From: Rhynchopus sp. YZ270_cl-10 | Lineage: Eukaryota | DNA length: 64,000 nucleotides | Direction of reading: 5' to 3' | Assembly: GCA_964035575.1 (NCBI GenBank) | Contig: OZ037837.1 | Coordinates: 682,001 to 746,000, forward strand | Part shown: positions 1,914 through 43,432 of the stretch, one piece after another | Numbering within the stretch: position 1 is the stretch's first letter | Layout of the letters: each line of letters opens with the position of its first letter | Notes under the pieces: generated by a model | The model's database searches: none | Told to the model about the DNA's origin: nothing | Seen by the model: only the letters and a program-made list of their open reading frames with translations | Made by a program: the position numbers and the translations under genes

Positions 1914-2168
1914 GGCGTCGTCCTTCTTCTTCTCCTCGATGATGTCGCGTGACGTGTACCAGACCGACGTCCCGCTCGTCTCGGATTCGAAGCACGTCTG
2001 GTGCGACAGCCTCATCAGGTCTCTGAGGCAGGTCCTCAGGGTCGCGTGCTTGCGTGCCACCTCGCGGAGCGTGCCCATACCCTTCCCAAGCGACACGACG
2101 CTGCGTGCACAGAAGACCTCGCTCGTCTTGTCCTTGCGCGTCACAGTGATCTGCGTCTTGTGTGCCTT
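1914..2168 (-). pseudogene. Duplicated internal fragment of the ART gene (copy of ~8034-8288)
   Basis: Near-identical to 8034-8288 (…ITVTRKDKTSEVFC…KKKDDA). It replaces the stop and 3' UTR segment present in the second gene copy (~23096-23260). Confidence 0.9.
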
Positions 2169-5100
2169 ATTCCGTTCAGTGCAGCTGCGCTATCGTCTCC
2201 TCCACTGCAACGCGAAGCCCGCAACGGCCGATTCATCAGTCTTCCAACTGCAGCGAAGTCTTCATCACCTTCATCGGCAACGGAGCTGGTGTCTTCGTTG
2301 CTGTTCAATGCAGAAAAGTCGAGGTTAAGTGCCTTCTTCGAAATGTTGTAGTTCATCAGCGCACCTGTCGATGTGGCCGCCCAGTCTCCACCTTCCGTGT
2401 ACCAACTATCCCTCCCTTCCTCCCAATACATGCCGTGCTGTCCCTGCAGCAGTGCTTCCGGTTGAGATGGGGACAAAAGCGAAGGTGATTTCTTCAGCTG
2501 TGCGAGGCGTACTGCAAGAAACTTCGCGTCTTTCTTGTGCAAAACGATGTTGCACCTCAAATACAACCCCTGTGCCTCGTTGTTGTAGTCGCCACACTCG
2601 TGCAGTCCTTTCTTCAAGATGCGGCGTGCCATATCGGTGTCATCCTGAGCCCTCAACCAGTACTGTTGTGCAGTGATTTAAAGGTAATGTGAAAGAGGAA
2701 CACAATAAAGTCTTTGAAACAAAGATGGGGTTTTGGTTTTCTGCTGCTGTTGTTTTCTTGTTCTTGATAATCTGTTGCCTTAGTGTGGCCGCCATTCAGA
2801 CAGCTTCACTGTCCTCCTTCTTAGTTGCAGGAGGGGAGGACAGCATCGCATACATGAAAGAGCAAGAAGTGAGACAAAACAAGACAAAGAGCATGCATAC
2901 GTTTTCAAAACCCCAATCCTGTTCTGCAAGGAGTTCGAACTGCGCACGCAAGTACATTTCTGCAACTTCAAGTTTCAGCTCCTCTCCAAGGCGAGCTGAA
3001 TAACGAGCAAGATACACAGGGATGGCACACATGTTCCGCACACGCTGTTTCCTTGCAGATTCGAAGATGCATGTGTACAGCACCTTCAGACGGTCCACAA
3101 ATTCACGTTCCTTCCCTTCTTGGAAGTAGGTCCAGCCAAAGTGTGTCCGCAGTCCTTCACGTGCTATTCTCACGAAGTACTTTGGTGCCACACGCAGGGT
3201 GGGGTCTGAGTCACAGAAGTTCATCCCAGTGGCCACAAGGATGGCGATGCTGTGGTGCGTCTTCTCACAGAGCTGGCTGTGCTCACTGTCCGTGCCGGAG
3301 GTGAAGGAGAAGCCCTGCTGCGAGACGCACATTTCTGTGCTCAGTTCCATCAGCGACTTCGTCAACGTCTGTCTCGCATGTTCCTTTGAGGTGAAGCCGT
3401 ACTGTGCAGGTTCCGCCTGTACGGTGGCCATCCACGATGTGAACTTGTCACGGGTGACTTCAATAGGCTCTGCACCGTCGTCCTCAAGGTTGCCGTCCAG
3501 ATACTTAAGTGATGGTTTGTTAATGTTGAGTATATACAGAGCGCGGTAGTACCCTATCGTATCGCCACGTGCGTCCAGGTCACGACGTGCAGAGTCTAGG
3601 GCTTGTTCGTTCCTTGTAACGATAGCTTGCACGTCCTCTCTCTTCATACGTTTAACACGTTCCCAATCTTCGATGCTGAGCAGCGGTGTTGCACGGAATA
3701 CTTTGAAGAACAGCAGACGCTGTTTCACAGACGTGAACGAGCCGATCAGACACTGCACAAAACGCAGTGGGAGGGACGGCGACGTGACTATCGTGGTTGT
3801 CTTCAGCAGCTGCTGCACCTCCCCGACAGTGATGCGGAACTCCTTCCCTCCGTACACATCGCTCACAGGCGGGGGGCACTCCCCAGGTGTGTCACGCGCA
3901 TGCTTGACTATCGTCTTGAAGAACGCGTCTTCGTCTGTGTGCTCGTCGTGGTAGGCCTGGATGGATGCTCCCGAAACAGTGACCACATCGTTCACATCCA
4001 TATCCTTCTCCCAATCCTTCGCGAGTTCCACGTGCGGGATGTTTGCGAGTTCGTCACCGTGCGGTCTTGGCATGCCTTCTGCAGTGTGATCCCCTTCAGG
4101 ACGCTTCTTGCGGTTCAACCCACGCAAAAACGTCTTCCCTGGGCGGTACGTGGTGGGCACAGCCAAAGGCAGGGTGATCGCATTATGGTTCGTCACCAGT
4201 CCGTTTGCGCCCTGCATCTTGAACGATGCGCTGTCATTCACAGGTCTGACAGTGTCCATCAGATCGTGCAACATCGCGTGCCGTTCCGTTCCGTGGAGCA
4301 TCTGAGACTTGCGGCTGAAGAACACATCACACTCGTCTGTGCACAAGAAGCTCTGCCTGTCCAATGTATCGTCCTTTGCTGTCTTGCTCTCAGGACGCAA
4401 ACACTCATCCATATCACCGTTCTTGCCCCAAACAGAACGCAGGCCAGTCAGTTGTATGCCAGAACACCAGGCACGGAGCTCTTTGTCCGTGCGCAGCAGC
4501 GAGCCACGTGAGATGAGGCTGACATGGAGGCACGCGCCACGTGCCTGAACATCCTCCACAACAAACATCTCAAGCGCAGGGAGGAGGAAGTCGTGTCCGT
4601 CGCTCAGCAGCCCCACACACTCGCCGTGCATCTTCCCACGCGCGCTGAAGAGAATCGTTGTCATGGTGCTGCTGCTGTTCTTGCGTGTCTCCACCTCAAC
4701 TTGCTCGCCAGGGACGTGTGTCAGGAAAGGGTCCTCAGGCTTCGCATCTTCCCATCTGAGTAACGTGTTCAGATCAAACCCCACGTCCTCCCCTCTTTCC
4801 TTGCGTGCCTGCTTGTGTGCCTGCATGCATTTGTCTTTGAACTCATGTTCGTAGCAAAGCTCGCCTTCATACGCAGCCTCCTCGCCACCCCTCCCTGTCC
4901 ATCTGCGCTCTGACGCCTCCCAGAGTCTTCCTGAGTTGTCGCTGAAGTCAGACGTGAAGTCCACCTTCGTCCTTGCTTCCTGTGTCTCGCTTCTGCTGTC
5001 CTTCTCGTGCCTCGCAGCACGATTTCTGTAGCGGCGCTCCACATCCCAGAGAGTGATGTCGGGCTGGCAGTACAGCTCACCACGCTTCAGGTGGAGGTGG

Positions 5101-8100
5101 TGGATCAGCACAGTGTCCGTCACGTTCTCCACCTTGCGGAAGAGCACCCGCTCCTTCTCCGTGCTTGTCACCAGCACAGCGTTCACAGCACCCCACAGCC
5201 TTGACCACGTGCGCATCTGGGCCCTGCTCTTCTCCGTTTCAATGCGGCTCCCAAACACCGTTGGGTCGTACAGGTTGAGAGAGGGCTGCCGCAACTGCTC
5301 CACAAGCGTCGGCAGTGTCTCCTTCTTCCCGTCCTCCCAGGCACCGCCCTCCACGGCTTCATCCCAGTCGTGTTTGAAGACAAAGTAGCCGTCAGCGTTC
5401 TGCCTGCGTATCTGCTTCTCCTGCTCGGCTGTGCTCCACACCGTGTCCAGATACTGCTGCTTTGTAACGTAGCTGCCTTCGTACATTCTGCGCTTCGTGC
5501 TGCACACGTCTGCCTCTTGCATATCTGACCATGGTTCCGTGTCCTGCAAAGCAACTTCGTGCTCGAAGTAGCGGATTCCGTTCTTGTCCATTCTGCGTGG
5601 AAGCTCCTCCTCCTCAGCAAGAGCCTTCCACTTATCCTGTCTGAAACCATTTGAAGGATTGCCCAATTCTGCGTAACTCTGGAATCCATCATCACCTTGA
5701 CACATCCTGCGCCCCGTGCTGCGCATATCGGTCATTGCACGCATCTCGTCTGTTGCATCCACAAGGGGAAAGAGCTCGTTCCCACGCGAGCAAAGCACCT
5801 TGAGACAGAAGAGGCTTGCTTCCAGACGGCCAAGAGGGCACTGCAGCACATCCAGTACGGAGCACGTCTTGCACAACTCCATGATGTCCTGCATCATGCC
5901 CGCCACGTGCACGGCGTACTCAGATGCGCACAGCGCAGCAGGCTCGTTCCCAAAGAAGGCTTCGTAGCGGGCACGCACGTTGCGGATCAGCTCAGCTGCG
6001 AGAGAGATGTGTTCACGGTCGTCTGCCATCCGCATCACCTCCAGCGCAAAGTTCTTCACCTTCCACAGCGGCTCGTCGTACCGGAGCACTGCAGGCTGGA
6101 GCCTGTCCAGACACACGTGAAGGCGCTGCGCCAGGTCTTGCGAGCGATCACAGGCATCAAGATAGTTCTCTGTGCCTCTGTTTTGACGGCGCGACATCTT
6201 CAGTTGTGGTGTTTCGCCAAACGCGTCCGTCTCGCAGGCGTCGCATTGCATGTCCAGAAGCAACGTCATCACCGACGCGTCGCACCAACGCGCAGCAGCA
6301 ACAAGCGCGCCGGGGAGCTTTGGGTACGTCCTGTTCGAAGCAAGCTTCTGTTGTGCTGAGTGCTGCTGTGCGTCAACCGCCTTCTGCAGGAGTTCGATGA
6401 AGAGAACAGCCTCACGCTGGCGGCTGTCGAACAGGTCCGAGAAGGCCATGTCCACCACGTCCACGTCGTACAGCGCTTCCGTGGCGTACTGCGGCCAGGT
6501 GTCACCCAGGTCGGAGAACGTGCTTGACACAAGGGTGCCTCTGTTGTGCGCACACCTGATGTTGATGACCTGCTGGATGTGCATCATGCGCTGTGCCGCA
6601 ACCTCCCCCAGGTGTGGATCGTCCCCGTCCTCTGCGTCGCATGTGTGTGTGTCACGCACCTGCAGAGGCCTTTGCTTTTGCTTTTGGTTTTGGTTTTGGT
6701 TTTGCTGCTCAGTGTCGCAGATGCTGAGCTGCACAACATGCCTGTTGACACGCAGCGCCTGCAGAAGGAGCTCCGCACCCTCGACACCGACACCGTTGTT
6801 GCGGATGTCAACCCGCACCAGGTGCACCTGCTTCGCGATGATCTTGTGCAGCAGCACAGCACCTGCATCGAGAAAAGCAAGCCCCTCCTGGCCATCCTCA
6901 CGCCGCATCTCGATGCTCACCTCCCACTGCTCCGTCGGGTTCATCGCCTTCAGCTGGTAGTAGCCCGAGCTTGCGTTCTCTTCCTCCTGCAGGCTGCGGG
7001 CGTCCTTCGCCTTCGAGGGCTTCAGGTGGCACGTCACCTCAACAAACGTGAGCGCTTTCGAGTGGCGCAGGCCGAGAACCAAAGACACTGCGTTGAGCAC
7101 CTGCCGCCCCTCCTCAGAGGACTGGTCAAAGATCACACGGGGGTGCTCGTGGGTGAAGCGATTCAGCTCGTGGGCATCGGACAGGAAACTGTTCCAGCTG
7201 TCGGCCACGTTGCCAGTGCAAAGCTTTGTGTTGTTGCTCGTCATCACAGGCGACAGCTGGAGTGCGTCGAAGTTCACCACAACTGTGTACACCCACTTCG
7301 CATCCACACAGCCTTCGCTTGCGCTCTTCAGGGAAAGGTCGAGAACACCGTTCCCAGAGTCCACTGCAGACACTGCCGAGAAGACCACGCGCGCGACCTC
7401 CTTCGTCTGTGCGCTTGCCAGGGAGCAGCGGATGCGGATCTTCTCCATCGACAGCTCGTCGACCTCAGAGATCTCGAAGAGCTGGAAGTCTTTCTTCCCG
7501 AGAATCGACTGCTGGTCCTCCGTCAGCATCGAGTCCACCTTGAACATTGAGTTCAGTGGGAACAGCCACTCCTCTTCACGGCCGAACCTGCTCCAGGGTG
7601 CGATCAGCCTGCAAGACGACCCTGTCACAATGAAGACCGACGCCGTCATCCCGCTCGCGGAGCTGGCGTAGAACTGCGAGATGCCCTGGTCCGTCGACGT
7701 CGACGAGAACGCAGACCACACCACCACGTTCCCCGTTGCGTAGAGCTCAGGGGGCAGGCGTGCGTTCCCAAGCCCGCGGTAGCACTTCTGCTCTGTCTCC
7801 GGCGCACACCGCCACCCCCGGTACGACAGCACAGGCGACATCTCCTTCATTGCCTCGTTCACGTAGAACAGCAGCGGCCGCACCTGCCCCGACACCCAGT
7901 CTCCCATTTGCACCTTCACCGTGCTTGGTTCTATGTACTCCGGTGCCTCCTTGTCGTACTGTGCCGTGTACCGGTAGTAGCCAAGCCCGCTGTGGTGCAC
8001 AGGGTCCAGGTAGTCCTCGTCGCTGAGCGGCAGGGCGTCGTCCTTCTTCTTATCCTCGATGATGTCGCGTGACGTGTACCAGAGCGACGTCCCGCTCGTC

Positions 8101-10376
8101 TCGGATTCGAAGCACGTCTGGTGCGACAGCCTCATCAGGTCTCTGAGGCAGGTCCTCAGGGTCGCGTGCTTGCGTGCCACCTCGCGGAGCGTGCCCATAC
8201 CCTTCCCAAGCGACGCGACGCTGCGTGCACAGAAGACCTCGCTCGTCTTGTCCTTGCGCGTCACTGTGATCTGCGTCTTGTGTGCTTTGTTCTGCGCATC
8301 ACGCATCGACGCGTTTAAGACGTAGTACGGCTGGTCCGCAAACTCGCAGCAGGATTTGTACAGCACACACGGTGGCACGTCTGCTCCAGGTACGGCGATG
8401 AACTTGTTCTTCCCAGACAGCGAAGCGTGCAGGGGTTGTTCGACGTGTGTCCAGTCTGCCACGCCTGCCGAGGACCAGTACACGGCCTGGATGTCGAGAG
8501 CGTGGAGGATCGTCAGCGGCGTCGGTGCCTGGCCTTCGGGGGCCTCACGCACGGCGATGGCGACCTTGTGTGCCACGAGCGCTTGGAACGGGCTGTAGTC
8601 TTGTTTGTGCTTGGTACTCAGTGCGTCGAGGTCTTCCTTGCAGCCTTTGTCGTACTGCTGCTGGTTCTTCTCGCGCACGCAACGGTCCTTCAGCGCACCC
8701 ACCGCACAGAAGAAGCAGCAGCTGTCGTCACAGCGGACGTACGCTGTCTCTGTCCCCGCCACCTTGTCCTTCCTCCCCGCAAGCAGCACCTTCTCCTCAC
8801 GCGCACGGCACGCAAACACATCCTCCGAACGCAGATAGTGCAGACCACCCTCGGCAATCTCAAGGTGCTCACAGGTGCGTCTGCTTTGCAAGTACTCCAG
8901 CACACCGGGTGGGGGCAGTCGTGCGAGAGACAGGGACGCCGTCGCAGTGTGGAGGCCTTCAAAGATGCAGGACGGGGCCGGAAGCCACGCAACCGAGTCC
9001 GAGTACGGGTGCAGCGCAACACGTTTCTTCAGGCTCGCGAGTGACTCCGCATCCGCCGTGCTTTGCGTGTTTGCACGCAAAGCAGCCTCGTACTCTGCCC
9101 TCACGTCTGCCAGTTTGTACCGTGCTATGTAGAACTCCTTTGCCACGTCCTTGGTCGTGTCGGTGGTGGCAGTGTCCGTGGTGGTGGTGTTGGTGGTGGT
9201 GTCACCACGACATCTGCAACCCTCAAGGAAGGGCGTGCTCACAAAGACCGTGAGCCCCTCCCAGCCCGCAAACACCCCACCAACCTTCCCTGCAAAGCCA
9301 CGCCCCCGTTCGTCCCCCTCGCTGCTGCTGCCGCCCACCATGCGCCCGTCGCAGAACACCACCTGCATCTGCGTGGGCAGCTCGAAGGCGGCACTGGCCG
9401 GCTGCCTGCTGGGGGTGGTGCCCGCACCCCTCGTGTCCTCCGCAACCCTTGCAAGCGCACGCCTTGCCTCTGTGATGGTGCCGTTCAGTGGTGCGAGCGG
9501 CAGCCCCCGTGGACGTGTCAGGTCTTCGTCCTCCCCACACAGGGGTGCCCCGTCCTTCGTGCAGTGCGCAAGGAAGTCCTTCTCCAGCACAACTGCGTGC
9601 GCCGGCGAGAACGGTGTCCACCGTCCGTGCCCATCCGAGGCCACCCAGAAGGCCCACGTGTACTCCGTCATGATCGCAATCGAGTAGATGAAGAGCGGCA
9701 CCACCACCTCCGCCACCTCCCCGTAGTTGTGCTTGTGCTGCATGAAGGTGCAGTTGTGCTTCACCCTGTCCACAGCACTCCGCGGCCACAGCTTCCGTCC
9801 AGGTCCGAACCAGTCTGCAAGCCCGTCGACCACCTCCGACACACTCTGCGTGGGTCTGTACTCGGCGCTGTAGGGGTCCACCAGCTGCACACTTTGTCCC
9901 GCATTTGCTTGCGTCACGTCTGCTGAGGCGTCGAACTTCAGTTGTGTCTGCACAGGTGTGTCCTTTGCCTCCTGTCCCTTCCCGGCCTGTCCCTTCGCCT
10001 TCCCGGCCTTCGCGAAGACTGTCGCAAGCACATCTCGAAGGCCCTGCGAAACGTCCTCCTCGAAACGCTCCTTGAACGTCGCGTGGTTGGATCTGCACGC
10101 GTCCCAGAGTGTCCCCAGCGCCGCTTCGAGCGATGGTGATGTGCTCGAGGGGTGCGACACCTCTGCGCACGCCGCAGTGCTGCCTTCTGCCGCAAGCTTG
10201 TTCTTCTCCACGTCCGTCGCAGGCACTGCCCCACGCAGGCCGTCGATGTAGCACGCCAGGTGCGCCAACGGGTCGCACGGCTTATGCTGAAGCAGCTCGT
10301 TCACAAGCTCGTCGACCAGCTTCAGGATGCTGTGCTGCTTTGCGTATGCTTGCACCTCCTCGCGTGGGCCGAACAT
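2141..10376 (-). CDS. Giant multidomain mono-ADP-ribosyltransferase (~2665 aa): Dpy-30/RIIa-like, WWE-like, ART (R-S-ExE), LRR, ankyrin-like, degenerate ART, macrodomain-like C-terminus
   Basis: join(10376..2901, 2662..2141). Phase-0 intron 2663-2900 (GTATGC…CACAACAG) joins GFEN to YWLRAQDD in frame. Dpy-30-like EVQAYAKQHSILKLVDELVNELLQHKPCDPL. WWE-like WAFWVASDGHGRWTPFSPAHAVVLEKDF (~9575-9666). ART motifs YYVLNASMR…CYRGL…FSSTS…FGREEEWLFP (~7500-8400). LRR VDIRNNGVGVEGAELLLQAL. Ankyrin-like LVAAARWCDASVMTLLL…DAFGETP. Confidence 0.85.
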
Positions 10377-11216
10377 GGTGGTGTGTTGCTTCCTGCAAGG
10401 TGTGTGGTGTGTGGACGGTGTGTGTGTGTGTGTGTGCATGCTTCCGAAGCCACATCCCAGAAGTACGCGATGTCTGTCTACTCTACGACGCCTTCAAGAA
10501 TGGAGCCTTTCCTCAACAGAGTATACAAAAATAATAAAACCTACATTCTCGAACTTTTCTACTGACGTGATTTTCATTGGACGCATCCTCCTCAACGCAC
10601 ACTCCTCGACCTGTGGTGAAATGTGGCCCTACTCCAACCCGAAAAGTAGAAGAGGATGGGAGTAGGGGTACGGTGTTCAATTTCCTTACAGCATTGCATG
10701 TAATCATAAAAGATAATCTGGCCACGGTACGACAATAAGAACCGGACAGAAGAACAGAACCAAAATAAGAGAAAAGGCATTGTAATATGAAGTGCCTTTC
10801 GTGCACATACATCCTTTAAGGTGGCTTGCAATCCAAGGTCCGCTCGGGAGTGTGGTTATGTTTGTGACTGGTGTATCAGCGGATCCCACCCCTGCAGGCC
10901 CACATCTACTTCGAGTTCTACAAGGACTATGAACTACAACCCACGGAGAAACTGAAACCGCATTCCTACCTTTCCCTTATTGTATTATCCCACCCCCGCA
11001 ATCACGAAAACACTAAAGGCAAAAGGAAGAGGCTGTGGTAGAATGCACACCTCGGCCTATCGGTGAGATGTGTCTCTACGCCAACCCGCCTCAGAATAGA
11101 AACAGGGAGGGACTAGGGGCACAGTTCAATATACTTTTTGCATTGTCTGGAAACGTAAACAGAATTCAACATATATGTTTGTACATGGCTTCATAAATAT
11201 ATTGAATATCGTCAAT

Positions 11217-19461: not shown

Positions 19462-21459
19462 TCACGCCATCTCTTCATCCTTAGCCGTTCCGTAGTCGTA
19501 CACGTCACATCCTTCAACCAGAGCTGAAGCATCCTCCGCACAGTCCTGTTGTATGTTGTACGCCACAGACCTGCGTCGCCGTGCAAACAGCACTCCTGCC
19601 AGCACCACAACCAGAAGTGCACCAGAACCAGCCAGCAGCCAAACGTAGGTGGGAAGCGCGACTGTTGGAACAGCCGTTGGTGGTGCCTGTGTCGTGACAC
19701 GACATGTGCTGAAGCTGAAGTTCGCCACCACACCGTTGAGGGGCACATCCCCAGGGAACGTGCTCGTGTAGATGTGGTTGTCGGTGCGTGTGTCAAGTAC
19801 TGGGAGAGGACCTGAGGCAGAGACACGTTCAACACCATCGAAGAAGAGCTGTGCAAAGCCTGTGTTGTGTGACGTCGCCGTCACGACAAGCACCACATGC
19901 ATGAAGACACCGCAGCACGGTCCCGGCACAGGGTCGATGAAGATGATGTGCTGTGCACCCTGCCACACTTGGTACTCCCACTGGCCCTTGCTGTCGATGG
20001 TGAGGATCACGTTGTTCTTCTCCATTCCATTCGAGAACTCGAAGACACGTCCCATATCATTCACACCGTCCACCCGCACGTCTGCCTCCATGATGAAGCC
20101 GTCCCCTCCCAACGTGAGTGGTGCGTTACTGACAAACTCAGACGAGTCGGTGAACTGTGTGATGAGGACTGGATCCTCACACGGCAGGACTACTGGTGCC
20201 GCTGTTGGTGCAACTGTCGGAACAGCTGTTGGTGGTGCCGCTGTTGGTGCAACTGTCGGAACAGCTGTTGGTGGTGCCGCTGTTGGTGCAACTGTCGGAA
20301 CAGCTGTTGGTGGTGCCGCTGTTGGTGCAACTGTCGGAACAGCTGTTGGTGGTGCCGCTGTTGGTGCAACTGTCGGAACAGCTGTTGGTGGTGCCGCTGT
20401 TGGCGGAACTGGTGTTGGCTGGATGCCCCAGGAGAAGTGTGAGGCTTGCTCAGACTCGACGAAGATCTGCTTGCCCCTCACACAGGGGACATCCCTATAG
20501 ACGTTGACGTTGTAGAAGAGGCCACTGAAGGAAAACGCCGTCTCAGTGCCTGTGTGGTCGTGTATCGTGACAAACCCTGGCTCGTTTTTCTTCAGTGAGA
20601 ACGTCAACGTCGCGTTTTCTGTGCATGTGATAACACCTGCGTATGTCTCTTCGCTGGATGAGAGCTCACCGTTCATGCCCCACGTCGTGTTGACACCATC
20701 GTAACTGCCTGCAGCGATGTGCTGTGTGACTGCGTCAGGCGACAGTGCAGGTGTCAGCAGTTCGGGCACGCCATTGTTCGGAACAAACGTTACTCCCACG
20801 AACATGGAGAAGAAGTCCAGACGCTTATAGCTTGACTCCCAATCCAGCTTCACACACAGGTCGTCACCACGCTCCCACGCAGCATGGTCAAACGGCACAC
20901 CCGTCACCTCCACAGTCATCGATTTCCATTTCGTCATGTTCACATCCTTCGAGAACAGTGTTGTCGCGTTCGACCCACACCCCTGTGTGATGGACAACGT
21001 CGCAGAGAGCAAGGGATCTGCTTGAGTACCGATCCGCAGACTGGCGATAGACACAACGTAGTTGTCCATCACATCACCCTCAAGCAGGCTGATGGCAGAG
21101 CCCACACCAGCAGAAAGACCTCCAGACCTGTGTGGTGGTGTTGTGTGTGGCACTATGTTCCTCATTCCAAGCTGTGCTTCACTCTGTGTGCAAATGTGGC
21201 AAAAGGTTCACAACCCTCTGGTTGCTGTATTTCCTCTTCCTCGACACGATGTGTTTTACTACAAAAGATGTTAAAGCGCACAGATCTGTGTTTTGCATCT
21301 TGGCATTGTTCTGAAGTGGAAGAGGGTCACATACCCGACTGTGACACGCGCCTGTGTCGTCTGCATCTCGTGCACCGTGCTGGCCAGTGAAGCCTCTGCC
21401 AGAAGGGACAGCAGCACAAAGGCTGTGGTGTGCTTCCCCCGCTGACATGTTGTTGACAT
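19462..21459 (-). CDS. Variable-domain type-I membrane protein, locus A (~596 aa): signal peptide, V domain, PT stalk, LamG/ConA-like domain, TM, short tail
   Basis: join(21459..21335, 21127..19462). Phase-2 intron 21128-21334 (GTATGT…CACACAG). Leader MSTTCQRGKHTTAFVLLSLLAEASLA. 13-aa PTAAPPTAVPTVA repeats. LamG-like FIMEADVRVD…RVFEFSNG…MHVVLVV…LFFDG…NHI…LNGVV. TM YVWLLAGSGALLVVVLAGVLFA followed by RRRR. Confidence 0.9.
20195..20405 (-). repeat. 39-bp coding tandem repeat (~5 copies), mucin-like PT stalk
   Basis: Exact repeats of GGTGCCGCTGTTGGTGCAACTGTCGGAACAGCTGTTGGT. Confidence 0.95.
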
Positions 21460-22764: not shown

Positions 22765-25700
22765 ATGGGAAATTAAAGGCTGGTAGCTGAAAGGCAGGCA
22801 CCTGAGTACTAAAAAAAATGTAACATGGGTGCTCCTGACGGCCCCATATTGCGTACTTCTTGCGTACTTAGTGCTGTACAAAATAGTGACGTTAGGTCCT
22901 GTCATTTGACAGAGGTTGTGGCTCTGGTCGGAACCAGGCTCCAACCCGCCCCAGAATAGGAAAAAAGGAAGGGAGTTGGGTGTTCAATTTCCTTTTAGCA
23001 TTGCATGTAATCATATAAAAAAGTGTGATCCGTGCATTCAGTGAAGACTTTGTTTCTGAGTTGGAAAACGGAGAAAGATCAAAACACTGATGCGGGGGAA
23101 ATATAACAAAACAAAAGCAAAACACAGCGAAACACTGAGTTGTGCCTCGCGAACATTGAGGCGTTAGCCCTGATTGCATTTTCTTAGAATTGAACGATTC
23201 TCAACATGTTTTACGGAAACGGTAACAAGACCCTCCGCCTTTGTTGGTACGCTAGCCACGTCCGTTCAGTGCAGCTGCGCTATCGTCTCCTCCACTGCAA
23301 CGCGAAGCCCGCAACGGCCGATTCATCCGTCTTCCAACTGCAGCGAAGTCTCCATCACCTTCATCGGCAACGGAGCTGGTGTCTTCGTTGCTGTTCAATG
23401 CAGAAAAGTCGAGGTTAAGTGCCTTCTTCGAAATGTTGTAGTTCATCAGCGCACCTGTCGATGTGGCCGCCCAGTCTCCACCTTCCGTGTACCAACTATC
23501 CCTCCCTTCCTCCCAATACATGCCGTGCTGTCCCTGCAGCAGTGCTTCCGGTTGAGATGGGGACAAAAGCGAAGGTGATTTCTTCAGCTGTGCGAGGCGT
23601 ACTGCAAGAAACTTCGCGTCTTTCTTGTGCAAAACGATGTTGCACCTCAAATACAACCCCTGTGCCTCGTTGTTGTAGTCGCCACACTCGTGCAGTCCTT
23701 TCTTCAAGATGCGGCGTGCCATATCGGTGTCATCCTGAGCCCTCAACCAGTACTGTTGTGCAGTGATTTAAAGGTAATGTGAAAGAGGAACACAATAAAG
23801 TCTTTGAAACAAAGATGGGGTTTTGGTTTTCTGCTGCTGTTGTTTTCTTGTTCTTGATAATCTGTTGCCTTAGTGTGGCCGCCATTCAGACAGCTTCACT
23901 GTCCTCCTTCTTAGTTGCAGGAGGGGAGGACAGCATCGCATACATGAAAGAGCAAGAAGTGAGACAAAACAAGACAAAGAGCATGCATACGTTTTCAAAA
24001 CCCCAATCCTGTTCTGCAAGGAGTTCGAACTGCGCACGCAAGTACATTTCTGCAACTTCAAGTTTCAGCTCCTCTCCAAGGCGAGCTGAATAACGAGCAA
24101 GATACACAGGGATGGCACACATGTTCCGCACACGCTGTTTCCTTGCAGATTCGAAGATGCATGTGTACAGCACCTTCAGACGGTCCACAAATTCACGTTC
24201 CTTCCCTTCTTGGAAGTAGGTCCAGCCAAAGTGTGTCCGCAGTCCTTCACGCGCTATTCTCACGAAGTACTTTGGTGCCTCACGCAGGGTGGGGTCTGAG
24301 TCACAGAAGTTCATCCCAGTGGCCACAAGGATGGCGATGCTGTGGTGCGTCTTCTCACAGAGCTGGCTGTGCTCACCGTCCGTGCCGGAGGTGAAGGAGA
24401 AGCCCTGCTGCGAGACGCACATTTCTGTGCTCAGTTCCATCAGCGACTTCGCCAACGTCTGTCTCGCATGTTCCTTTGAGGTGAAGCCGTACTGTGCAGG
24501 TTCCGCCTGTACGGTGGCCATCCACGATGTGAACTTGTCACGGGTGACTTCAATAGGCTCTGCACCGTCGTCATCAAGGTTGCCGTCCAGATACTTAAGC
24601 GATGGTTTGTTAATGTTGAGTATATACAGAGCGCGGTAGTACCCTATCGTATCGCCACGTGCGTCCAGGTCACGACGTGCAGAGTCTAGGGCTTGTTCGT
24701 TCCTTGTAACGATAGCTTGCACGTCCTCTCTCTTACGTTTCTCGTTTGTCTCTTACGTTTAACCCTTTAAGGACCAGAGGGGACATATATGTCCACGCAA
24801 CCACCTAAATTGGCTTCCACTAGGACTTTTTGAAGATTTTTACAACTTACCTTCCTTCACCCCCCCCCCCTGTAAGGGCAACCGTAGGTGAAGTAAGGTA
24901 TAGTATTGAAATCGATGTGGGGGGGGAGTAAAGGGTCAATTTTACAAAACCAGATTTTGAGGAAAATTTTAGCCGAAAATGGGCCCCACGTATAAGCAAC
25001 CGGGCTCATATTTCTCAAAATTTAAGTGGTCAAAAAATTGTCCAATTTTCGAGATTGACCCCACCACTGCACGGGCGGAGCCCAAAAATGCAAATAAGGA
25101 CCCTTTTCAACTTACCTTCACCGTGCGCTGGTCAGAGGATACCTGGTCAGTTGACCAGGTAATATGACCAGGTTTTGACCTGGTCAGATTGACCAGGTAC
25201 ACCTGGTCATGACCAGGTATACCTGGTCAATGACCAGGTATTGACCAGGTATACCTGGTCAGTGACCAGGTATTTGGCCACTGTGACCAGGTTTTTTTTT
25301 TTTTTTGACAACACAAAAATGCCCTTGGTGGGTCCATATGACCTCAAAACTGGGCTAAAAGTGCAAATAAAGGCACTTACGAGCAGTTTAGAGCATCTAG
25401 AATTTATTCCACGGCTATTTGTGTGCACCCTGTACATTTTGTATGGGCATCACCTTAGCAAAAAATCGAAAAATCTCAAAAAAAAAAATTTTTTTTTCGG
25501 GAAAAATTTGGCCTCTGGGTTGGGTCTTGGGGCACCGAAAAATGCAAAAAAACGCAAAATTCGGGTGTTTTGACCATCTGGGGTTTCACCAAATACACGT
25601 ATTTGAACAATCCTACACGAAACAGTGGTTAGACAAGGCGATTTTTGACCAAAGAAAAAATAACTTTTTTGCCCAAAATAGGCCGTGGTAGGTCATAAAA

Positions 25701-27620: not shown

Positions 27621-28809
27621 ACAGTGTTCGCAGTTTCTACCTGAGAGCATTACAACATTTAACTTCTCCACGGGGGTCTTGGGCCGTTCACTCGGTTCTA
27701 CCTTGACTACCGGAAGATATTCTTGAGGCCTTTTTGGTCTCTAGAATATCCGGTCTTCCCGAACGGAGGCACACTTTGTGTGTTACTACGACCTGGCAAT
27801 TTCCAGCAGTAGGTTAAGTAATCTTTCTTGTAAATTGTTGGATCATTATCTCCTCAGTGCATGAATGCCCCACGTGACTGGACACTTTTGTGTTTGTCAT
27901 GTGGAGCTGTGGTTGCTCTTTCACGACTTTTTTCTTGTTCCTGGGTACCTGTTCCTGGACCTGGACCTGGGTACCTGGGTACCTGGGTACCTGGTCACCT
28001 GGGCGCCTGGGTACTTACCTGGGTAAATGTGACCAGGTACCTGGTCATCTGACCAGGTACACCTGGTCATGACCAGGTATACCTGGTCATGACCAGGTGT
28101 ACCTGGTCAGATCTGACCAGGTGTACCTGGTCATAAATCTGACCAGGTATTACCTGGTCAGACCTCTGACCAGCGCACGGTGTTCCTTCACCCCCCCCCC
28201 CTGTAAGGGCAACCGTAGGTGAAGTAAGGTATAGTATTGAAATCGATGTGGGGGGGGGAGTAAAGGGTCAATTTTACAAAACCAGATTTTGAGGAAAATT
28301 TTAGCCGAAAATGGGCCCCACGTATAAGCAACCGGGCTCATATTTCTCAAAATTTAAGTGGTCAAAAAATTGTCCAATTTTCGAGATTGACCCCACCACT
28401 GCACGGGCGGAGCCCAAAAATGCAAATAAGGACCCTTTTTCAACTTACCTTCCTTCACCCCCCCCCTGTAAGGGCAACCGTAGGTGAAGTAAGGTATAGT
28501 ATTGAAATCGATGTGGGGGGGGAGTAAAGGGTCAATTTTACAAAACCAGATTTTGAGGAAAATTTTAGCCGAAAATGGGCCCCACGTATAAGCAACCGGG
28601 CTCATATTTCTCAAAATTTAAGTGGTCAAAAAATTGTCCAATTTTCGAGATTGACCCCACCACTGCACGGGCGGAGCCCAAAAATGCAAATAAGGACCCT
28701 TTTTAATTTGTTCTCTTGAAATGTGTAATTTCATGTTTTCGCGAAAAAAATTACAACTGATCCTACAAGGGTTGAAGGAAGGTGGTTGAAAACAACAATA
28801 ACAACAAGG

Positions 28810-29249: not shown

Positions 29250-32062
29250 TTTTTAATGAGAAGATTTTGTGCGAAATCTTTCAAAAGACGCAAGATTCGA
29301 TTTTTTTTGACGCTCTCATCCCCTCTCATCCACACCCGGCATTATCACATAATAGGGTATTTTGGGTCATTTTTTGGGAATAATGTACCATTCTGACGCG
29401 CTTGAGTCATCAGAGGATTCAAACTTTGGTGTGCAGGGAACCATTTTGTACGGTCTTCAGAACGAAACTAAAATAATGGAAAATACCCGCGACTGGGCAA
29501 AGTAAGCGTCGTCCTTCTTCTTATCCTCGATGATGTCGCGTGACGTGTACCAGAGCGACGTCCCGCTCGTCTCGGATTCGAAGCACGTCTGGTGCGACAG
29601 CCTCATCAGGTCTCTGAGGCAGGTCCTCAGGGTCGCGTGCTTGCGTGCCACCTCGCGGAGCGTGCCCATACCCTTCCCAAGCGACGCGACGCTGCGTGCA
29701 CAGAACACCTCGCTCGTCTTGTCCTTGCGCGTCACTGTGATCTGCGTCTTGTGTGCCTTGTTCTGCGCATCACGCATCGACGCGTTCAAGACGTAGTACG
29801 GCTGGTCCGCAAACTCGCAGCAGGATTTGTACAGCACACACGGTGGCACGTCTGCTCCAGGTACGGCGATGAACTTGTTCTTCCCAGACAGCGAAGCGTG
29901 CAGGGGTTGTTCGACGTGTGTCCAGTCTGCCACGCCTGCCGAGGACCAGTACACGGCCTGGATGTCGAGAGCGTGGAGGATCGTCAGCGGCGTCGGTGCC
30001 TGGCCTTCGGGGGCCTCACGCACGGCGATGGCGACCTTGTGTGCCACGAGCGCTTGGAACGGGCTGTAGTCGTGTTTGTGCTCGGTACTCAGTGCGTCGA
30101 GGTCTTCCTTGCAGCCTTTGTCGTACTGCTGCTGGTTCTTCTCGCGCACGCAACGGTCCTTCAGCGCACCCACCGCACAGAAGAAGCAGCTGTCGTCACA
30201 GCGGACGTACGCTGTCTCTGTCCCCGCCACCTTGTCCTTCCTCCCCGCAAGCAGCACCTTCTCCTCACGCGCACGGCACGCAAACGCATCCTCCGAACGC
30301 AGATAGTGCAGACCACCCTCGGCCACCCGCGGTGCGACACCTCTGCGCACGCCGCAGCAAGCTTGTTCTTCTCCACGTCCGTCGCAGGCGCTGCCCCACG
30401 CAGGCCGTCGATGTAGCACGCCAGGTGCGCCAACGGGTCGCACGGCTTATGCTGAAGCAGCTCGTTCACAAGCTCGTCGACCAGCTTCAGTATGCTGTGC
30501 TGCTTTGCGTATGCTTGCACCTCCTCGCGTGGGCCGAACATGGTGGTGTGTTGCTTCCTGCAAGGTGTGTGGTGTGTGGACGGTGTGTGGACGGTGTGTG
30601 GACGGTGTGTGGTGTGTGTGTGGGTGCATGCTTCCGAAGCCATATATCCCAGAAGTACGCGATGTCTGTCTACCCCACAACGAGATCATCAAACACACAA
30701 TCTGACTTTCGACTTCCGAATATGAGAGGTGAGTAAAAAGAAAACAAAAAACAACTTTTTTCCGTTTATCGCTCTGCAAATTTGTTGTGTTTTTTTTTTC
30801 TTTTTTTGCTGTATGAGGAGAGTGATAAAACGCATACTGGAAAGAATGAAACACAATGTGTAGCCACGCACCTTCCGTTCGATTCTATTTCCTCCATTCC
30901 CATGCTTGCTATATACAGTCACACAACAAACACAGGTAGGGAAATCTCTGAGGGTTTTGACCCCACTGATATTTGTTCTGTGGATGTATATGAAAGAAAA
31001 TAAACAGGAGTCGATCGACCTCTCGTCGTCATTTAAGAAGAGAAGTGCGAATGGCTCAAAATAAGTTTCAATTATAAGTCAGCAATCCTATGACATTACG
31101 AAGGTTGCTTTTAAAGAAAACAAGCTTTTTTTCAGATGAATGTGCCTCTCGTGCACACACACGCATCATTTTTCTTTTTTTCAAATACCTTACAGTCAGA
31201 CCATGAATCCCTCACATCCCACAGACTTAAAAAGAGGGGCAAATCAGAGCGAGTGGCAGTACATGATAGCGTTAACCATCTCTCTCTGCACGTTTTGTTG
31301 TGTCGACAACCACCAACAGCATCCACTTGGTGGGTAGGGTCATAGGGAGAAAGAGACTTGTTACTTTTTTCTCAAAAAAAAAAGACCACAAAAACTGGGG
31401 GAAAAAATCAGGTTGTTTGTTGTTCGCTTCCACAAACAAGCCGGGGGGGGGCGAGTCTACACTGATACAACCAAGTTAAAAAAAAAAATAGAAAAAAAGA
31501 AAAAAAACAATACTGAACAGATGTGGAAGGTACAGAAAAAAAGGGGAAGGGAATGGGGTAGGTGAGGGACATAACATCTTGTTTTTGCTGTCTCAGAGAC
31601 TTTGTGGTACATTTTTTTTTGTTTTTTTTTTAGTGCAGGTTTGGGTCCTTGGTTGCACAAAAAGAAAAGGATTAAAAACACACACAAACATTTGCAAAAA
31701 ACAAGATTTTTTTTAAAAAAATAAAACAAATAGACCTGAAAGCATACTGGGACTGCGAACACCTTACCACACTGAAACACACTGTCTGAAGAACACTAAC
31801 TTTGACTCGAAACAAACCAAAAAGCCCTCTCGTCACAGTGCACATCCTTGAACATGATTGCGGTACCTCGACAAAGATTTGCCTCTCTCTCGTTCGTCTT
31901 TTTGTTGAGTTGAATTTAGTTAAAGTGTGAGCGTCAGCACTTCTTTGTTGCACACTGAAAGGAGGCATCTTCATCCCAAATCTCAAACCTTATTTGCTGT
32001 TGTCGACGAAATCATTATTCCGATAAAAAAAACGGAACAAAGTTCTCTTAAAAATTTTTTTT

Positions 32063-33403
32063 TTACAATTTCGCCTTTTCTGGAACCACGTCGTCTAGCA
32101 CCTTCATGACATACGCGATTTCTGCCGGGGTATTGTAATGCGCAGCACTGATACGTACTACTCCGTCAGTAGTGTCAATTCCCAACGCTTTCGAGGCACC
32201 AGGGCTCATAAGGGAACCGCTTTTACATGCAATCCCCGCCTTGATTAGCCCTGTCGCAATGTCTGCGCTCTTCATGGAGTGAGAGGTGAACGACACAATC
32301 GGCTTGGTATGCGCACCGTGCGCAACCCCCGATCGCACCAACTTCAACCGTCCGTTCTGTGCAACCCACAATCGGAACGGCCTGACCACATCGTCCACCA
32401 TTTGTTTCATCACCGATAAGGCTCGAACCACCATTGCTCTGGTGCCCATTCGCTTCACCTCTACTTCTGGCAGGTTGTCCGCGAGAGTCACCACCTTTTG
32501 CAGGTACGATTCGAAGCCGAGAATGCCCGATGCGGTCGCATAGTTGGTGTGACCAGACACCATTTCAAAAACATTGGTATCGGATTCCCCATTAGGACAA
32601 ACCCACCCCCAGGCTTGGTGAGTCCCAAAGAGCACACCCGATTGAGGACAACAGTTTTTATACAGCGACATCGAATACCAATCAGGGCACAGCTCCGCAC
32701 AGTCCACGGTACCAGAGGATGCGTAAGCCACCCCATCAATCAGCACCCTTGCCGCGTTGTGACGACGTACCTCGGAGACAATCCTTTTTACGTCAATAAC
32801 TTCGCCGACCAGATTTGAGACATGAGGAATAATCACGATGGGAGCTGTCGGGGTTGATCCATCATAGCATGCTGATAACGTTGTGGAGAGCTCAGTGTGA
32901 GAGAAAAACCCTGGTTCGGAACGGTCGATTTCAGAAAGGGTGTGAAGCGTTGAACGGATATTCGCATTTTTGATGGAGTTGAGGCGTTCGTGAAGGGCGA
33001 TCCAGGGGCGGATGTGGGTCATGTGGTTCATCGCGGAGATGATGATTGGGATGTGGACGGGGCTTTGGTTGCGTAGGATGGCGTCAAAGATGCGCTCGGA
33101 GAGTGTGCTGACCAGACTGCGCGCAGAGGTGCCCAGCAAAGGATACCCCACTGTCCCGCACCCCATGTACTCATGGACAAACGCGCTGCACTCTGTCAGC
33201 ACCTCCTCCACCGCGAGCGAGCTCCCATACGCACCACCACGCTGTACATTGCACTCCCGAAAGTGTGCTGCGACCCGTTCCGTGACCTGCGTAGGGACGA
33301 AGGTGCCGCCGGCGTTCTCGAACATTACTTCGTCGTTGTCAAGCCCAGGAAAGTCGCCACGAAGCACATCGCGCATCTCCGCAAGCCTGCCCTGAGACAG
33401 CAT
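32063..33403 (-). CDS. Class-V PLP-dependent enzyme (cysteine desulfurase-like family) with C-terminal PTS1 (-AKL)
   Basis: From ATG 33403 (446 aa, intronless). Motifs FENAGG…VP, HVSNLVGEVID, DGVAYA, YSMSLYK (PLP lysine), GVVRISAAHYNT. Ends EKAKL*. Confidence 0.88.
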   Translation of the reverse strand: MLSQGRLAEMRDVLRGDFPGLDNDEVMFENAGGTFVPTQVTERVAAHFRECNVQRGGAYGSSLAVEEVLTECSAFVHEYMGCGTVGYPLLGTSARSLVSTLSERIFDAILRNQSPVHIPIIISAMNHMTHIRPWIALHERLNSIKNANIRSTLHTLSEIDRSEPGFFSHTELSTTLSACYDGSTPTAPIVIIPHVSNLVGEVIDVKRIVSEVRRHNAARVLIDGVAYASSGTVDCAELCPDWYSMSLYKNCCPQSGVLFGTHQAWGWVCPNGESDTNVFEMVSGHTNYATASGILGFESYLQKVVTLADNLPEVEVKRMGTRAMVVRALSVMKQMVDDVVRPFRLWVAQNGRLKLVRSGVAHGAHTKPIVSFTSHSMKSADIATGLIKAGIACKSGSLMSPGASKALGIDTTDGVVRISAAHYNTPAEIAYVMKVLDDVVPEKAKL

Positions 33404-33535
33404 CGTTATTAATTGAGTCTTTTTCAAAAAAAAAAATGTGTTTATTGCTTCAATCCTGGAGTGTAGGGATGTATTGAAAATCGATAGTACTATCAAGAGT
33501 GTAAGGGTTGAAGAGCAAAGTGTAAGGAAAACATT

Positions 33536-36789: not shown

Positions 36790-39700
36790 TCACGTCATCT
36801 CTTCCTCCACGTAGTCGTACGCGTCACATCCTTCAACCAGAGCTGAAGCATCCTGCTCGCAGTGCTGTTGTCCGTTGTACGCCACCACAGACCTGCGTCG
36901 CCGTGCAAACAGCACTCCTGCCAGCACCACAACCAGAAGTGCACCAGAACCAGCCAGCATCCAAACGTAGGTGGGGATACCGGATCCTGTCCCCTTGTCC
37001 TGCACTGCTGGTACTGGTGCTTGTGCAGCCCACTGCAGGCCACAGGGCGCAACGCAGCTGGCAACAACCGCACTCCCCTTCACACACCGCACCACAAGCA
37101 CACCCTCCATGTTGCTCGCCACGTGCAGCGTCAGGTCCGCCCCCACTGCCGACACCGACCCCAGCGTGGCCGTCACCGTCACGTCTGCGTCATCCTCGCA
37201 CAGCAGCGTGCCTGAGAAGTCCTTCACAGCAGAGCTGTGTGCACCTGACGTCTGCAGGCTTGCTCCTGTCGCGTTCACAGCCTTCGCCACAGACAGTGTG
37301 GGCAGCACGTCCACTTCGGAACCCCCTGGCACATCGTGAGGCACAAACACCGACTGCACACGCATTGTGAAGGCGAAACTCATACGCCCCGTCTGCGCCG
37401 ACATGGGGCTCGCACGGAAATACATCTTCTCTGCGTACACCGTGCTTGGCGTGCCAACAAACGTCTCGTTTGGGCCAAGTGTCACCTCCGTCGACCACAG
37501 CACGGCGTCGCTGTTCGCCGAGTGAAGCACCAACACAAACTCCACTGTCTCCCCCTCAGTCGGCCCACGGGTCAGCACAAAGCTCAGCATGTATGCCGTG
37601 TGTGAGTCAGACAGGTCCACCTTTGTGAGCTTGAACGGCGACATCAGGTCCAGCGAGACTGTGTTCACCATGCTGTGTGTTTGAAACATGAAGCAGTTTT
37701 CGTGGAATTCATAATAGTGCAGGACCGCGGTACAAAACAAGCTTGACATACCTGTGCACGCGAAAGTCAATGAAGCCCTCGACAACTGCCGAAAGAAATT
37801 CTGTTCCGTTCACGAGAGGTGGTGATGTCGTCACAATGAATGGTGGCACTGCGGACGGGTCGACACTTGTTGAGGGCACGTGCGTTGGCCCGCCCCACCC
37901 AAACACAGCATCGGCAGTGGCAGACACCCATATGGCACTGCCACGCAGGCAGGTCGTCGTGAAGACCGTCACCACACCTGGGTCCTGAAACATGAAGGAC
38001 GTCGTGTTCGAGGCCAGCACACGCAACGAACCTCTGAACGGAGACACCGTGAACGTCATCTCGCTGTCCACAGCACCACAGTCCAGCATCTGCATCTCAG
38101 ACGTCATATCGTGATTGTGGCTCTCGCCAGACATCGGCAAAAGAGGCAAGAACCCAAACTCATTTCTGTTGAGTCGCAACCGCGCCACGTCCAGCACAGG
38201 CACCTCAGGCATTGGTGTGAACTTGGTGTGCAACAACATCGTGCAATTGAATTCGTTTCCGCCTTCCTTCTGTGCCTGGAACAACACTGTGAACGTCTTT
38301 CCGTCCAAAGTCTCCTCTGCCGTGATCGTGGCAGTTTGCCCCGGGCCGAGAGTGACCCACTGCAGGACGCTCCCTGTGTCGCCAATCACTGTAACCCAAA
38401 AGATCGCACTTTCGCTGTCACCTGCAGCACGTGACAGCGTGAGTGCATCAAATGAAAGCAACTGACCAGGAACACTCAAGAATCCTTGAGCCAACTCAAA
38501 AACAGACCTGCAAAAATGGAGAATGGAGATACGTGGGGTGGGTGGGCCATTCCCATTGAGGGTAAGGAACAAACAAAAGAAAAGGATGCAAGATGCATCT
38601 AAGCCCCACGTGCTTAATCATAATCAATAATAGTATCAAAACATACCCCGGATCGTGTGTGCGCACCCGAGCCTTGACAATTTGAGTGACGGCGACAGCA
38701 ACTGCGACTGGTGACAATGTTGTCTCAACAGTGGGAAGAGCTGTTGGCAGTGCTGTTGGGGGACTAGCTGTTGGTGGAGCAACTGTCGGGGAAACTGTTG
38801 GCCAAGGTGTTGGCGGGGCAACTGTTGGGGAAACTGTCGGAACAGCAGTTGGCACAGCTGTGGGAGGAGCAACTGTTGGGGCTGCTGTTGGGGAAACTGT
38901 CGGAACAGCAGTTGGCACTGCTGTTGGTGGAGCAACTGTCGGGGAAACTGTTGGCCCAGGTGTTGGCGGGGCAACTGTTGGGGAAACTGTCGGAACAACA
39001 GTTGGCACAGCTGTGGGAGGAGCAACTGTTGGGGCAACTGTCGGCACTGCAGTTGGCACAGCTGTTAGTGGAGCAAGTGTTGGCCAAACTGTAGGCACTG
39101 CAGTTGGCACAGCTGTGGGAGGAGCAACTGTTGGGGCTGCTGTTGGGGAAACTGTCGGAACAGCAGTTGGCACTGCTGTTGGTGGAGCAACTGTCGGGGA
39201 AACTGTTGGCCCAGGTGTTGGCGGGGCAACTGTTGGGGAAACTGTCGGAACAACAGTTGGCACAGCTGTGGGAGGAGCAACTGTCGGCACTGCAGTTGGC
39301 ACAGCTGTTAGTGGAGCAAGTGTTGGCCAAACTGTAGGCACTGCAGTTGGCACAGCTGTTGGTGGAACAAATGTTGGTGCAACTGTCGGAACAGCTGTTG
39401 GCGGTACTGCTGTTGGGGTTACGTCAAAGAAGGCCCAGGAGAAGTGTGAGGCTTGCTCAGACACGACGAAGATCTGCTTGCCCTTCACACAGGGGACATC
39501 CATCCAAACGATGCCGTTGTTCTTGTTTGCGCTGAAGGAAAACGCCGTCTCAGCACCTGTGTGGTCGTGGATCGTGACAAACCCTGGCTCGTTCGCCTTC
39601 AGTGAGAACCTCAACTTCCCGTACTCTGTGCATGTGATAACACCTGCGTATGTCTGTGCACTGGAAGAGAGCTCACCGTTCATGCCCCACGTCGTGTTGA

Positions 39701-42519: not shown

Positions 42520-43432
42520 TGTGGTACCTGGGTGGTGTGGTGTGGTCGTGTGGGCATGAACATCCTTGGTCATATGGCTACAGCGCTGCTTTGAAGATGT
42601 GGACCAAGGGTCGCGCCAAGTCACCGCAGACGAACCTGAGACTTCATGTTGGAGTTCGAAAAACACAGTCAGACTTTGTCTCCGGACCCGGGTCTGGGAA
42701 AGTGCTGCGGGGGGTACGGAGATTACGTCCGAATTCACCGTTTCTGACCCGCTCGTCTCTGGTGTTCCTCTTGCCCCAAAGCTTCAAAGTTTTGGTGAGT
42801 AAGTGAGGCTGGTGGACGCAGATGCAGGTTATCAACAAAACGGAAAAATAAATAGAAAAAGGAGGGCGGGGGGATTTCCTTTTTTTTGTTGTGTCGACAA
42901 TCGCCTGCTAGTGCAGGATCTGTACTTAATGTCTTTTTCCTTTTTCTTCTCGCACTGTGTTCATCTCCCCGATAAAGAAGGAAAAGTCATGATAAGATGA
43001 TCTAAGCCTCTTGCGCTTAGTCACCAATAAATGCTCTCAATATTCTGACGGGAGGGGTGAGGAAGTGCAACGTGAAAAAGAAAACCTTTTGTTGAGTCTC
43101 TTATTGGAAACTGTTTTCTTCTCCGCTAACACACAAAAAAAAAAAAAAAAAAAAAACACTTGACAGGAAAAAATGTTTTTCACACAACGTTTTTTGCTGT
43201 TCTCCTTTTTTAACTTTCTGCTTTTCCTCTTTTTCAAAAAAAGCCTTTGTCCTACATTTCCCCTACACTTCTACTGCCTTTTTATTCTGGAATCACTAGA
43301 ATTTTAGTAACTCAGGACGCTCTCCTTATTTGGGTACCTACCCCCCCCCCCCCCCCCTATAGGTGTCAGTATTTGTATTTTGATGTATTTTTGTATTTTG
43401 ATGAGGGGCCCATCAAAATACATCAAAATACA

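Follow-up and report, generated by a model that had tools for sequence, protein, structure and literature searches.

A diplonemid-type giant protein joining an arginine-type ADP-ribosyltransferase core to a Larg1/MavL-type macrodomain with an altered pocket

Introduction

Can a single polypeptide write, read and erase its own ADP-ribose mark? This question is raised by a stretch of 64,000 nucleotides from Rhynchopus sp. YZ270_cl-10 (GenBank assembly GCA_964035575.1, contig OZ037837.1, positions 682,001 to 746,000 of the forward strand; hereafter the window), in which a minus-strand gene at 2141..10376 encodes a giant protein with an ADP-ribosyltransferase (ART) core and a C-terminal macrodomain. 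An initial annotation had taken this protein for a self-contained ADP-ribosylation switch, with a writer, a WWE reader and an eraser-like module. The answer towards which we lean, with modest confidence, is that a diplonemid-type giant protein combines here an intact arginine writer with a macrodomain whose pocket has been lost, this copy being a writer with a disabled eraser.

Results

Gene model and splicing

The gene consists of a pair of minus-strand exons (10376-2901 and 2662-2141), and its spliced product comprises 2,665 amino acids:

2901..10376, minus strand: exon 1, residues 1-2492
2663..2900, minus strand: intron of 238 nucleotides, GT..AG, phase 0, within the macrodomain
2141..2662, minus strand: exon 2, residues 2493-2665 and stop codon

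In the window sequence, an open reading frame runs uninterrupted from the ATG at 10376 to 2796. The match of the spliced protein to the macrodomain profile of the family is unbroken (positions 1-419 of 421), and a homolog known from a transcriptome (P0011) reads through the same joint. Together with the GT..AG intron, this bears out the single giant protein proposed initially; as judged from sequence, the gene is real, and it is one member of a multi-copy family. A hydropathy scan of the spliced protein gave an N-terminal maximum of 0.23 and an overall maximum of 1.61, with neither leader nor membrane segment, which suggests a cytosolic location. With the intron retained (2796-2900), the protein would have a hydrophobic tail of 34 amino acids (hydropathy 2.1) and a macrodomain that is cut; this is the end seen in gene calls made without splicing, P0003 among them.

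A putative writer core with intact motifs

7452..7886, minus strand: ART1 catalytic core, with R867, S892-T-S894 and E934-x-E936 (Pfam, PDB sequence match, alignment)

The R-S-ExE core of ART1 is indeed intact, as had been annotated: the Pfam ART family (PF01129) is matched at 22.4 bits by the whole protein and at 26.9 bits by the segment, for a curated cut-off of 22.3, and the motifs YRGL, FSSTS and REEEW lie at 7781, 7709 and 7580, respectively. Among PDB sequences, it comes closest to an R-S-E transferase (expect value, E, 3e-4). The R, S and ExE residues are retained in 35 of 37 ART-bearing rows, a set that includes isoforms and close paralogs, the exceptions being P0007 and the fragment P0038; two full-length paralogs share the ART core of the window copy at 100% identity. 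The ExE motif is an arginine signature (PMC9191684), and ART1 likely transfers ADP-ribose from nicotinamide adenine dinucleotide (NAD+) to arginines inside the cell.

A macrodomain of Larg1/MavL fold

2901..4283, minus strand: Larg1/MavL-fold macrodomain, exon-1 part, diphosphate loop altered at ~3000-3023 (family profile, homolog model)
3477..3674, minus strand: hypervariable helical hairpin in the macrodomain, residues 2235-2300 (paralog comparison; helices in homolog model)
2318..2662, minus strand: macrodomain, exon-2 part, catalytic-loop Asp and acidic pair altered (family alignment)

A family search over 1.84 billion representatives led to 97 proteins, and the spliced window macrodomain scores 508 bits on the family profile. 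Fold evidence was obtained from a predicted model of the homolog P0021 (36% identical; predicted local distance difference test, pLDDT, 93), whose top Foldseek matches were Larg1 (E 4e-7), CG2909, CG3568 and MavL. In line with this, VIA gave a Z of 20.8 for Larg1 (root-mean-square deviation, rmsd, 3.9 over 290 aligned residues), followed by 14.8, 14.4 and 14.3 for Drosophila DUF4804 proteins and MavL, and 8.9 for bacterial PARG. Atlas ranked MavL clusters first for P0021 (0.90); for the exon-1 half of the window macrodomain it returned only an unnamed match (0.75). The likeness to MavL/DUF4804 hydrolases that had been suspected from the C-terminus is thus supported as a Larg1/MavL-type fold, by way of this homolog model. 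At the sequence level, no Pfam family matched the macrodomain at the cut-off, PF24754 and PF16062 included (one of 46 members matches PF24754, at E 0.08), sequence searches of the PDB with the macrodomain gave no match, and NCBIfam gave none for P0001, P0021 and P0113.

Two loops, GxGxG[FWY] and WD..PGN[DE], define the arginine-specific macrodomain class, which was reported only from bacteria, fungi and arthropods and all four tested members of which are hydrolases (PMC10951314). The present family retains GxGxF and NPSD; the exact diphosphate loop, [VIL]xGxGxGx[FWY], occurs in one of 80 rows, and 51 of 80 have xGxGx[F], in which Pro or Ala takes the place of the first Gly. The F-to-D spacing is 88 in P0021, to be compared with 88 in MavL (F227-D315) and 89 in Larg1 (PMC10951314), and the Pro two residues ahead of the Asp in NPSD matches P370 of Larg1 (PMC9191684). 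This macrodomain looks like a new branch, Arg-specific-like and yet, by its sequence, outside the published definition, which may be an eraser or only a reader. No description of such a macrodomain family, or of an arginine-type writer-eraser fusion, was found in the literature searched, which left out subscription papers and supplements; MavL, DUF4804 and Euglenozoa are nowhere mentioned in PMC9503650. In a midpoint-rooted tree of 75 macrodomains of at least 330 amino acids (isoforms, split euglenid domains and bacteria set aside), ART-fused domains fall in three groups with weak backbone support, and no order of events is claimed.

Loss of pocket residues in this copy

The window copy has replaced all five pocket residues G277, G279, D372, E396 and E397 (profile columns), that is, both diphosphate-loop glycines, the EE pair and the Asp whose spacing equates it with MavL D315/Larg1 D372; the Asp of the catalytic loop is Gln. 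Among 74 distinct complete domains, these residues are retained in 71, 65, 65, 66 and 62, respectively, and no domain of this set lacks them all. The macrodomain had been called degenerate at the outset, rightly so in view of these replacements. Paralogs P0107-P0109, P0113 and P0114 have also lost these residues, with different substitutions, and the loss, common to all exon-1 copies of the cluster, hits pocket columns while structural columns are kept. The picture varies among other close copies, P0116 and P0118 being intact and P0117 and P0119 not, and runs X3 and X4, in which this gene occurs, also contain close paralogs that have kept the Asp and the EE pair. Of the 18 rows in which an ART accompanies a complete macrodomain, 13 retain both sites (10 of 14 once the window protein and three isoforms are removed). 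Divergence among paralogs is concentrated in the macrodomain: compared with two full-length paralogs, its hairpin is 50-62% identical and its pocket segment 82-89%.

This copy is likely writer-on and eraser-off, its macrodomain being predicted from these replacements neither to remove the mark nor to bind it well. The proposed self-contained switch does not hold for this protein, because its eraser is degenerate; only intact paralogs could be self-limiting switches.

Distribution of the family and the reader alternative

Among the homologs checked, 22 of 30 carry an organism name or prefix. We take all 22 to be euglenozoans, and the nine named proteins that have both ART and macrodomain are all diplonemids, which makes a diplonemid the likely source of the window. 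The orthologs in Diplonema papillatum are DIPPA_27974 and DIPPA_01141. Fusion partners were scanned in 56 of the 97 family proteins. The macrodomain is joined to ankyrin-polycystin channels (six proteins, three with triple copies), SIR2 (three), EF-hands (two), WWE (six) and PDZ, and in one alignment seven of 46 proteins are macrodomain-kinase fusions. The channel proteins (P0012, P0016, P0017, P0050, P0052 and P0059) carry one to three macrodomains N-terminal to ankyrin and the polycystin channel, P0016 being annotated as Polycystin-2 of Diplonema papillatum; such proteins are candidate ADP-ribose-controlled channels. The euglenid proteins P0081, P0088 and P0105 combine a macrodomain, ankyrin, WWE and a C-terminal SIR2, an architecture that recalls NAD+-consuming defence effectors.

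These fusions bear on the role of the macrodomain. It might be a reader, an ADP-ribose sensor, in all euglenozoan members, the fusion then being a writer with a sensor of its own product that is altered here; we hold this to be unlikely, though better placed than the alternatives taken up in the Discussion. The fusions to channels, SIR2 proteins and kinases would suit a sensor, and no acid stands at column 383, which fits MavL D323, in any of the 74 distinct complete euglenozoan-type domains, whereas three of four bacterial-type homologs have Glu there; loss of D323 in MavL lowers activity (PMC10951314). The published motif WDxx[SA]xPGN[DE] is likewise absent from all sequences, its full form WDxx[SA]xPGN[DE][FY][FWY] having no match in any fetched protein. 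However, a conserved W-E (W in 73 and E in 66 of 74 domains) together with a G-E-E-D patch could supply the acid, and the tested members of the class speak for hydrolysis (PMC10951314). Moreover, a reader would alter the role of the family, not the finding of a changed pocket in this copy. The switch idea fits the intact relatives better, but even these are no more than putative hydrolases, because no euglenozoan member has the acid where bacterial homologs do.

Bacterial homologs were found in two Candidatus (Ca.) Berkiella genomes and one proteobacterial genome (three of 47 pattern matches). Ca. Berkiella are intranuclear bacteria of amoebae. One homolog from this group (L002:2401-4338) has a C-terminal lpg1496_N-like domain (E 5e-4), which suggests an effector. 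At L003:1408-4053 and 4081-6585, a bacterial homolog shares its chain with a NadD-like adenylyltransferase (E 2e-6, under the cut-off) and stands beside a weakly matching VirB4-like ATPase gene, which we take to be IcmB. On viral contigs, 74 pattern matches yielded no confirmed relative, metagenome contigs not having been scanned with the tighter alignment. Neither a donor of the macrodomain nor a direction of transfer is claimed.

Pseudo-ART and accessory regions

4503..6056, minus strand: ART2, pseudo-ART of R-S-E-clade fold without conserved triad, residues ~1441-1958 (predicted model, Foldseek, VIA)
10239..10364, minus strand: RIIa/Dpy-30-like docking motif, weak, residues 5-46 (Pfam RIIa, homolog, local profile)
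6543..6896, minus strand: short RI/CARMIL-type leucine-rich repeat (LRR) stretch, residues ~1161-1278 (Pfam LRR_6, predicted model, VIA)
6177..6314, minus strand: lone ankyrin-like helix pair, weak (model helices; weak homolog matches)
9573..9662, minus strand: W-W-E hairpin-helix, like the first half of a WWE domain only (Pfam, local profile)

A second, degenerate ART-like region had been suspected at ~4520-5200; its fold is supported, and it extends further. In a model confined to residues 1140-2010, and so without ART1 (mean pLDDT 77), the top Foldseek matches were all R-S-E ARTs, the best at E 1.1e-3 and none at or below 0.001, and VIA gave a Z of 11.9 (rmsd 3.0, 179 aligned). By hhalign, ART2 did not match ART1 significantly; the two were collinear over 83 columns, compared with at most 17 in seven control segments. 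On the strength of this predicted model, ART2, present in ~30 fetched homologs, is a conserved pseudo-ART, because the catalytic triad is not conserved in the family (30-31 aligned rows).

Of the other parts named initially, the N-terminal Dpy-30/RIIa-like motif stands as a weak one (Pfam E 0.085 here, 2e-4 in the homolog P0028). Among the repeats, the LRR part holds as a short RI-type stretch (LRR_6 E 0.009, under the cut-off; CARMIL VIA Z 10.2 with the model of residues 1140-2010). The ankyrin part remains weak: there is no Pfam match in this protein, homologs reach E 0.009-0.13 at the same place, and no ankyrin structure is among the fold matches listed for residues 1140-2010, a list filled by ART matches.

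The W-W-E segment had been taken for an ADP-ribose reader on the understanding that profile searches would decide, and these failed. Pfam WWE (PF02825) gives E 0.027 and 15.3 bits for a cut-off of 21.1, over profile positions 4-29 of 67 only; a profile built on six genuine WWE domains of related proteins did not match the segment significantly (hhalign probability 1%), and a PDB sequence search with it found no WWE. In the family alignment, the W..W hairpin is conserved and the second half absent, and true WWE domains occur in other family members, elsewhere in the chain. The WWE reader is thus unsupported, being a sub-threshold half-match that escapes the WWE profile of the relatives.

The 3' end and local rearrangements

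1914..2172, minus strand: 97.7% copy of the internal segment 8034-8292, joined onto the gene at its 3' end and giving its last nine codons and stop
23252..24740, minus strand: 5'-truncated 99% copy of the 3' part of the gene, with normal C-terminal end
29506..30682, minus strand: partial copy of the 5' part of the gene, internally deleted (10490-10151 joined to 8855-8035)

The 259-bp duplicate that provides the end of the protein is fused at 2172, outside the macrodomain, and had been overlooked initially. The copy at 23252 ends differently from the main gene, and it is with that end that contigs of runs X1, X3 and X4 continue. The tail of the gene is either a copy-specific rearrangement or an assembly error. 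Both internal partial copies (1914 and 29506) stop at one gene base, 8034/8035, which hints at a common breakpoint. A high-copy repeat of ~170 bp lies at both flanks of the gene (1746-1913 and 10638-10711) and after a partial copy (22938-23100); it may mediate rearrangements. Between the partial gene copies, tandem units of ~240 bp and ACCTGGTCA-type short repeats (24840-25330 and 27950-28700) are perhaps transposon ends.

Neighbouring genes

19462-21207, 36790-42783, 57400-60068 and 63369-63998: members of a laminin-G-like surface-protein family
32063-33535, 47669-48571 and 48866-50041: class-V aminotransferase, GNAT acetyltransferase and DUF6687, respectively

The first of these is a dispersed family of predicted surface proteins, many of them fragmentary, in which laminin-G-like domains and PT repeats are combined with a hydrophobic segment at the C-terminus.

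Discussion

From a mechanistic point of view, the analysis shows the domain order, the ART triad, the macrodomain fold in a homolog, the five pocket losses and the concentration of divergence in the macrodomain, and from these we infer the chemistry and the roles. This copy would derive from an ancestral ART-macrodomain fusion that limited its own mark. The RIIa-like motif at the N-terminus may dimerise or dock the protein, ART1 would modify arginines, and the pseudo-ART and repeats may form a scaffold that regulates or holds the substrate. In ancestral, intact paralogs, binding or hydrolysis of arginine-ADP-ribose by the macrodomain would keep the mark in check; in the expanded paralog group, this brake would have been lost, with intact paralogs erasing in trans instead, and the dead macrodomain, whose hairpin changes fast, would likely serve as a surface for recognition of partners or targets.

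Several points weigh against a writer with a disabled eraser. The ART1 Pfam score is barely above the cut-off, although ExE predicts arginine. For the window copy, the fold and the residue mapping were obtained via the homolog, motif and spacing, not by superposition. W385-E386 and D398 are retained, and residual binding is therefore possible. Hairpin variability was seen at the protein level, in two plus seven copies, and relaxed selection fits it equally well. Finally, none of the contigs listed in four runs bridges the 3' junction at 2172, and partial copies adjoin the gene, which resembles a decaying locus.

These last observations raise the alternative that the gene is a duplicate in decay, set in a repeat-rich region that is being rearranged, its macrodomain changes being neutral and the locus perhaps partly misassembled. 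Three partial copies within 30 kb, the unbridged junction with the normal end present instead in X1, X3 and X4, and several split or truncated paralogs (P0109, P0110) are in line with decay. By contrast, a 7.5-kb exon has stayed open, the splice sites are intact, the ART core is identical across paralogs that otherwise differ, and substitution has struck the pocket and spared structural columns throughout the exon-1 copies of the cluster; we consider decay quite improbable.

The initial model, in which this protein would by itself be a switch made up of writer, WWE reader and eraser, can draw on the confirmed writer and MavL-type fold, on the other complete fusion proteins that retain both sites, and on the precedent of PARP14 (PMC10470015); with the WWE failing its profile tests and five pocket residues lost, it is very improbable for this copy. 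Some R-S-E enzymes are known to act as NADases or on nucleic acids. That ART1 might likewise be mainly an NAD+ glycohydrolase or non-protein modifier, supplying free ADP-ribose to macrodomain channels and kinases, would agree with the same macrodomain being found on channels and SIR2 proteins, and seems to us the least credible alternative of all, given that ExE, the arginine signature (PMC9191684), is strictly kept in 35 of 37 rows.

A writer with a disabled eraser may belong to a broader picture, which we offer as tentative and rather doubtful. Euglenozoa may run an as yet undescribed intracellular arginine-ADP-ribosylation system, founded on a Larg1-like macrodomain that intracellular gammaproteobacteria share. 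In such a system, giant fusions would write and self-limit, channels, kinases and SIR2 proteins would read (the channels being ADP-ribose-controlled), and, in some lineages, an expanded set of writer-only paralogs with dead, fast-changing macrodomains would be variable recognition modules against endosymbionts or viruses.

Few native writers of intracellular arginine ADP-ribosylation are known in eukaryotes, and the present protein is a candidate for one, joined to what looks like a new branch of the arginine-specific macrodomain class. Natural paralogs with intact and altered active sites allow a direct comparison, and candidate ADP-ribose-sensing channels and kinases are offered by an abundant, little-studied marine group. 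The fusion may also be a second independent case of the logic of PARP14, in which writer and eraser in one chain are already known (PMC10470015).

Comparison with known systems

The R-S-ExE core is common to ARTC and other R-S-E transferases (ART2.2, SpvB, Vis, ExoS, HopU1), and eukaryotic mono-ARTs of bacterial-toxin descent are known (PMC3417536). In contrast to ARTC and toxin ARTs, hydropathy gives no sign of a hydrophobic leader or a membrane segment in the present protein, and no delivery or toxin parts were seen in it. A second, degenerate ART fold in the same chain is also found in the tandem pseudo-ART and ART of VIP2/CDTa; here, however, the pseudo-ART follows the active ART.

MacroPARPs (PARP9, PARP14, PARP15) likewise hold a writer and a macrodomain in one chain, with recurrent loss of macrodomain activity (PMC10470015, PMC10221186), but they belong to the PARP clade and carry another macrodomain class, whereas the present writer is of the R-S-E clade and has no supported WWE; we infer an independent origin.

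With Larg1 (Lpg0081), MavL and Drosophila CG2909 and CG3568, this family shares the fold, the loop order (diphosphate before catalytic) and the F-to-D spacing of 88, and its intact members have the GxGxF loop in common with Larg1/MavL/DUF4804 (PF24754, PF16062). It differs from these in giving no sequence match, in having G-x-x-W-E plus GEED in place of PGN[DE], in its helical hairpin insert and ART fusion, and, in the window copy, in the lost pocket. The nearest parallel is the pair formed in Legionella by Ceg3 (Lpg0080) and Larg1 (Lpg0081), in which an R-S-ExE ART is also paired with this macrodomain fold (PMC9191684). Ceg3 and Larg1 are encoded by two adjacent bacterial effector genes, whereas here a single eukaryotic, intron-bearing chain holds both, along with a pseudo-ART, LRR and docking parts; by analogy, this protein would work like the Ceg3/Larg1 pair in one chain.

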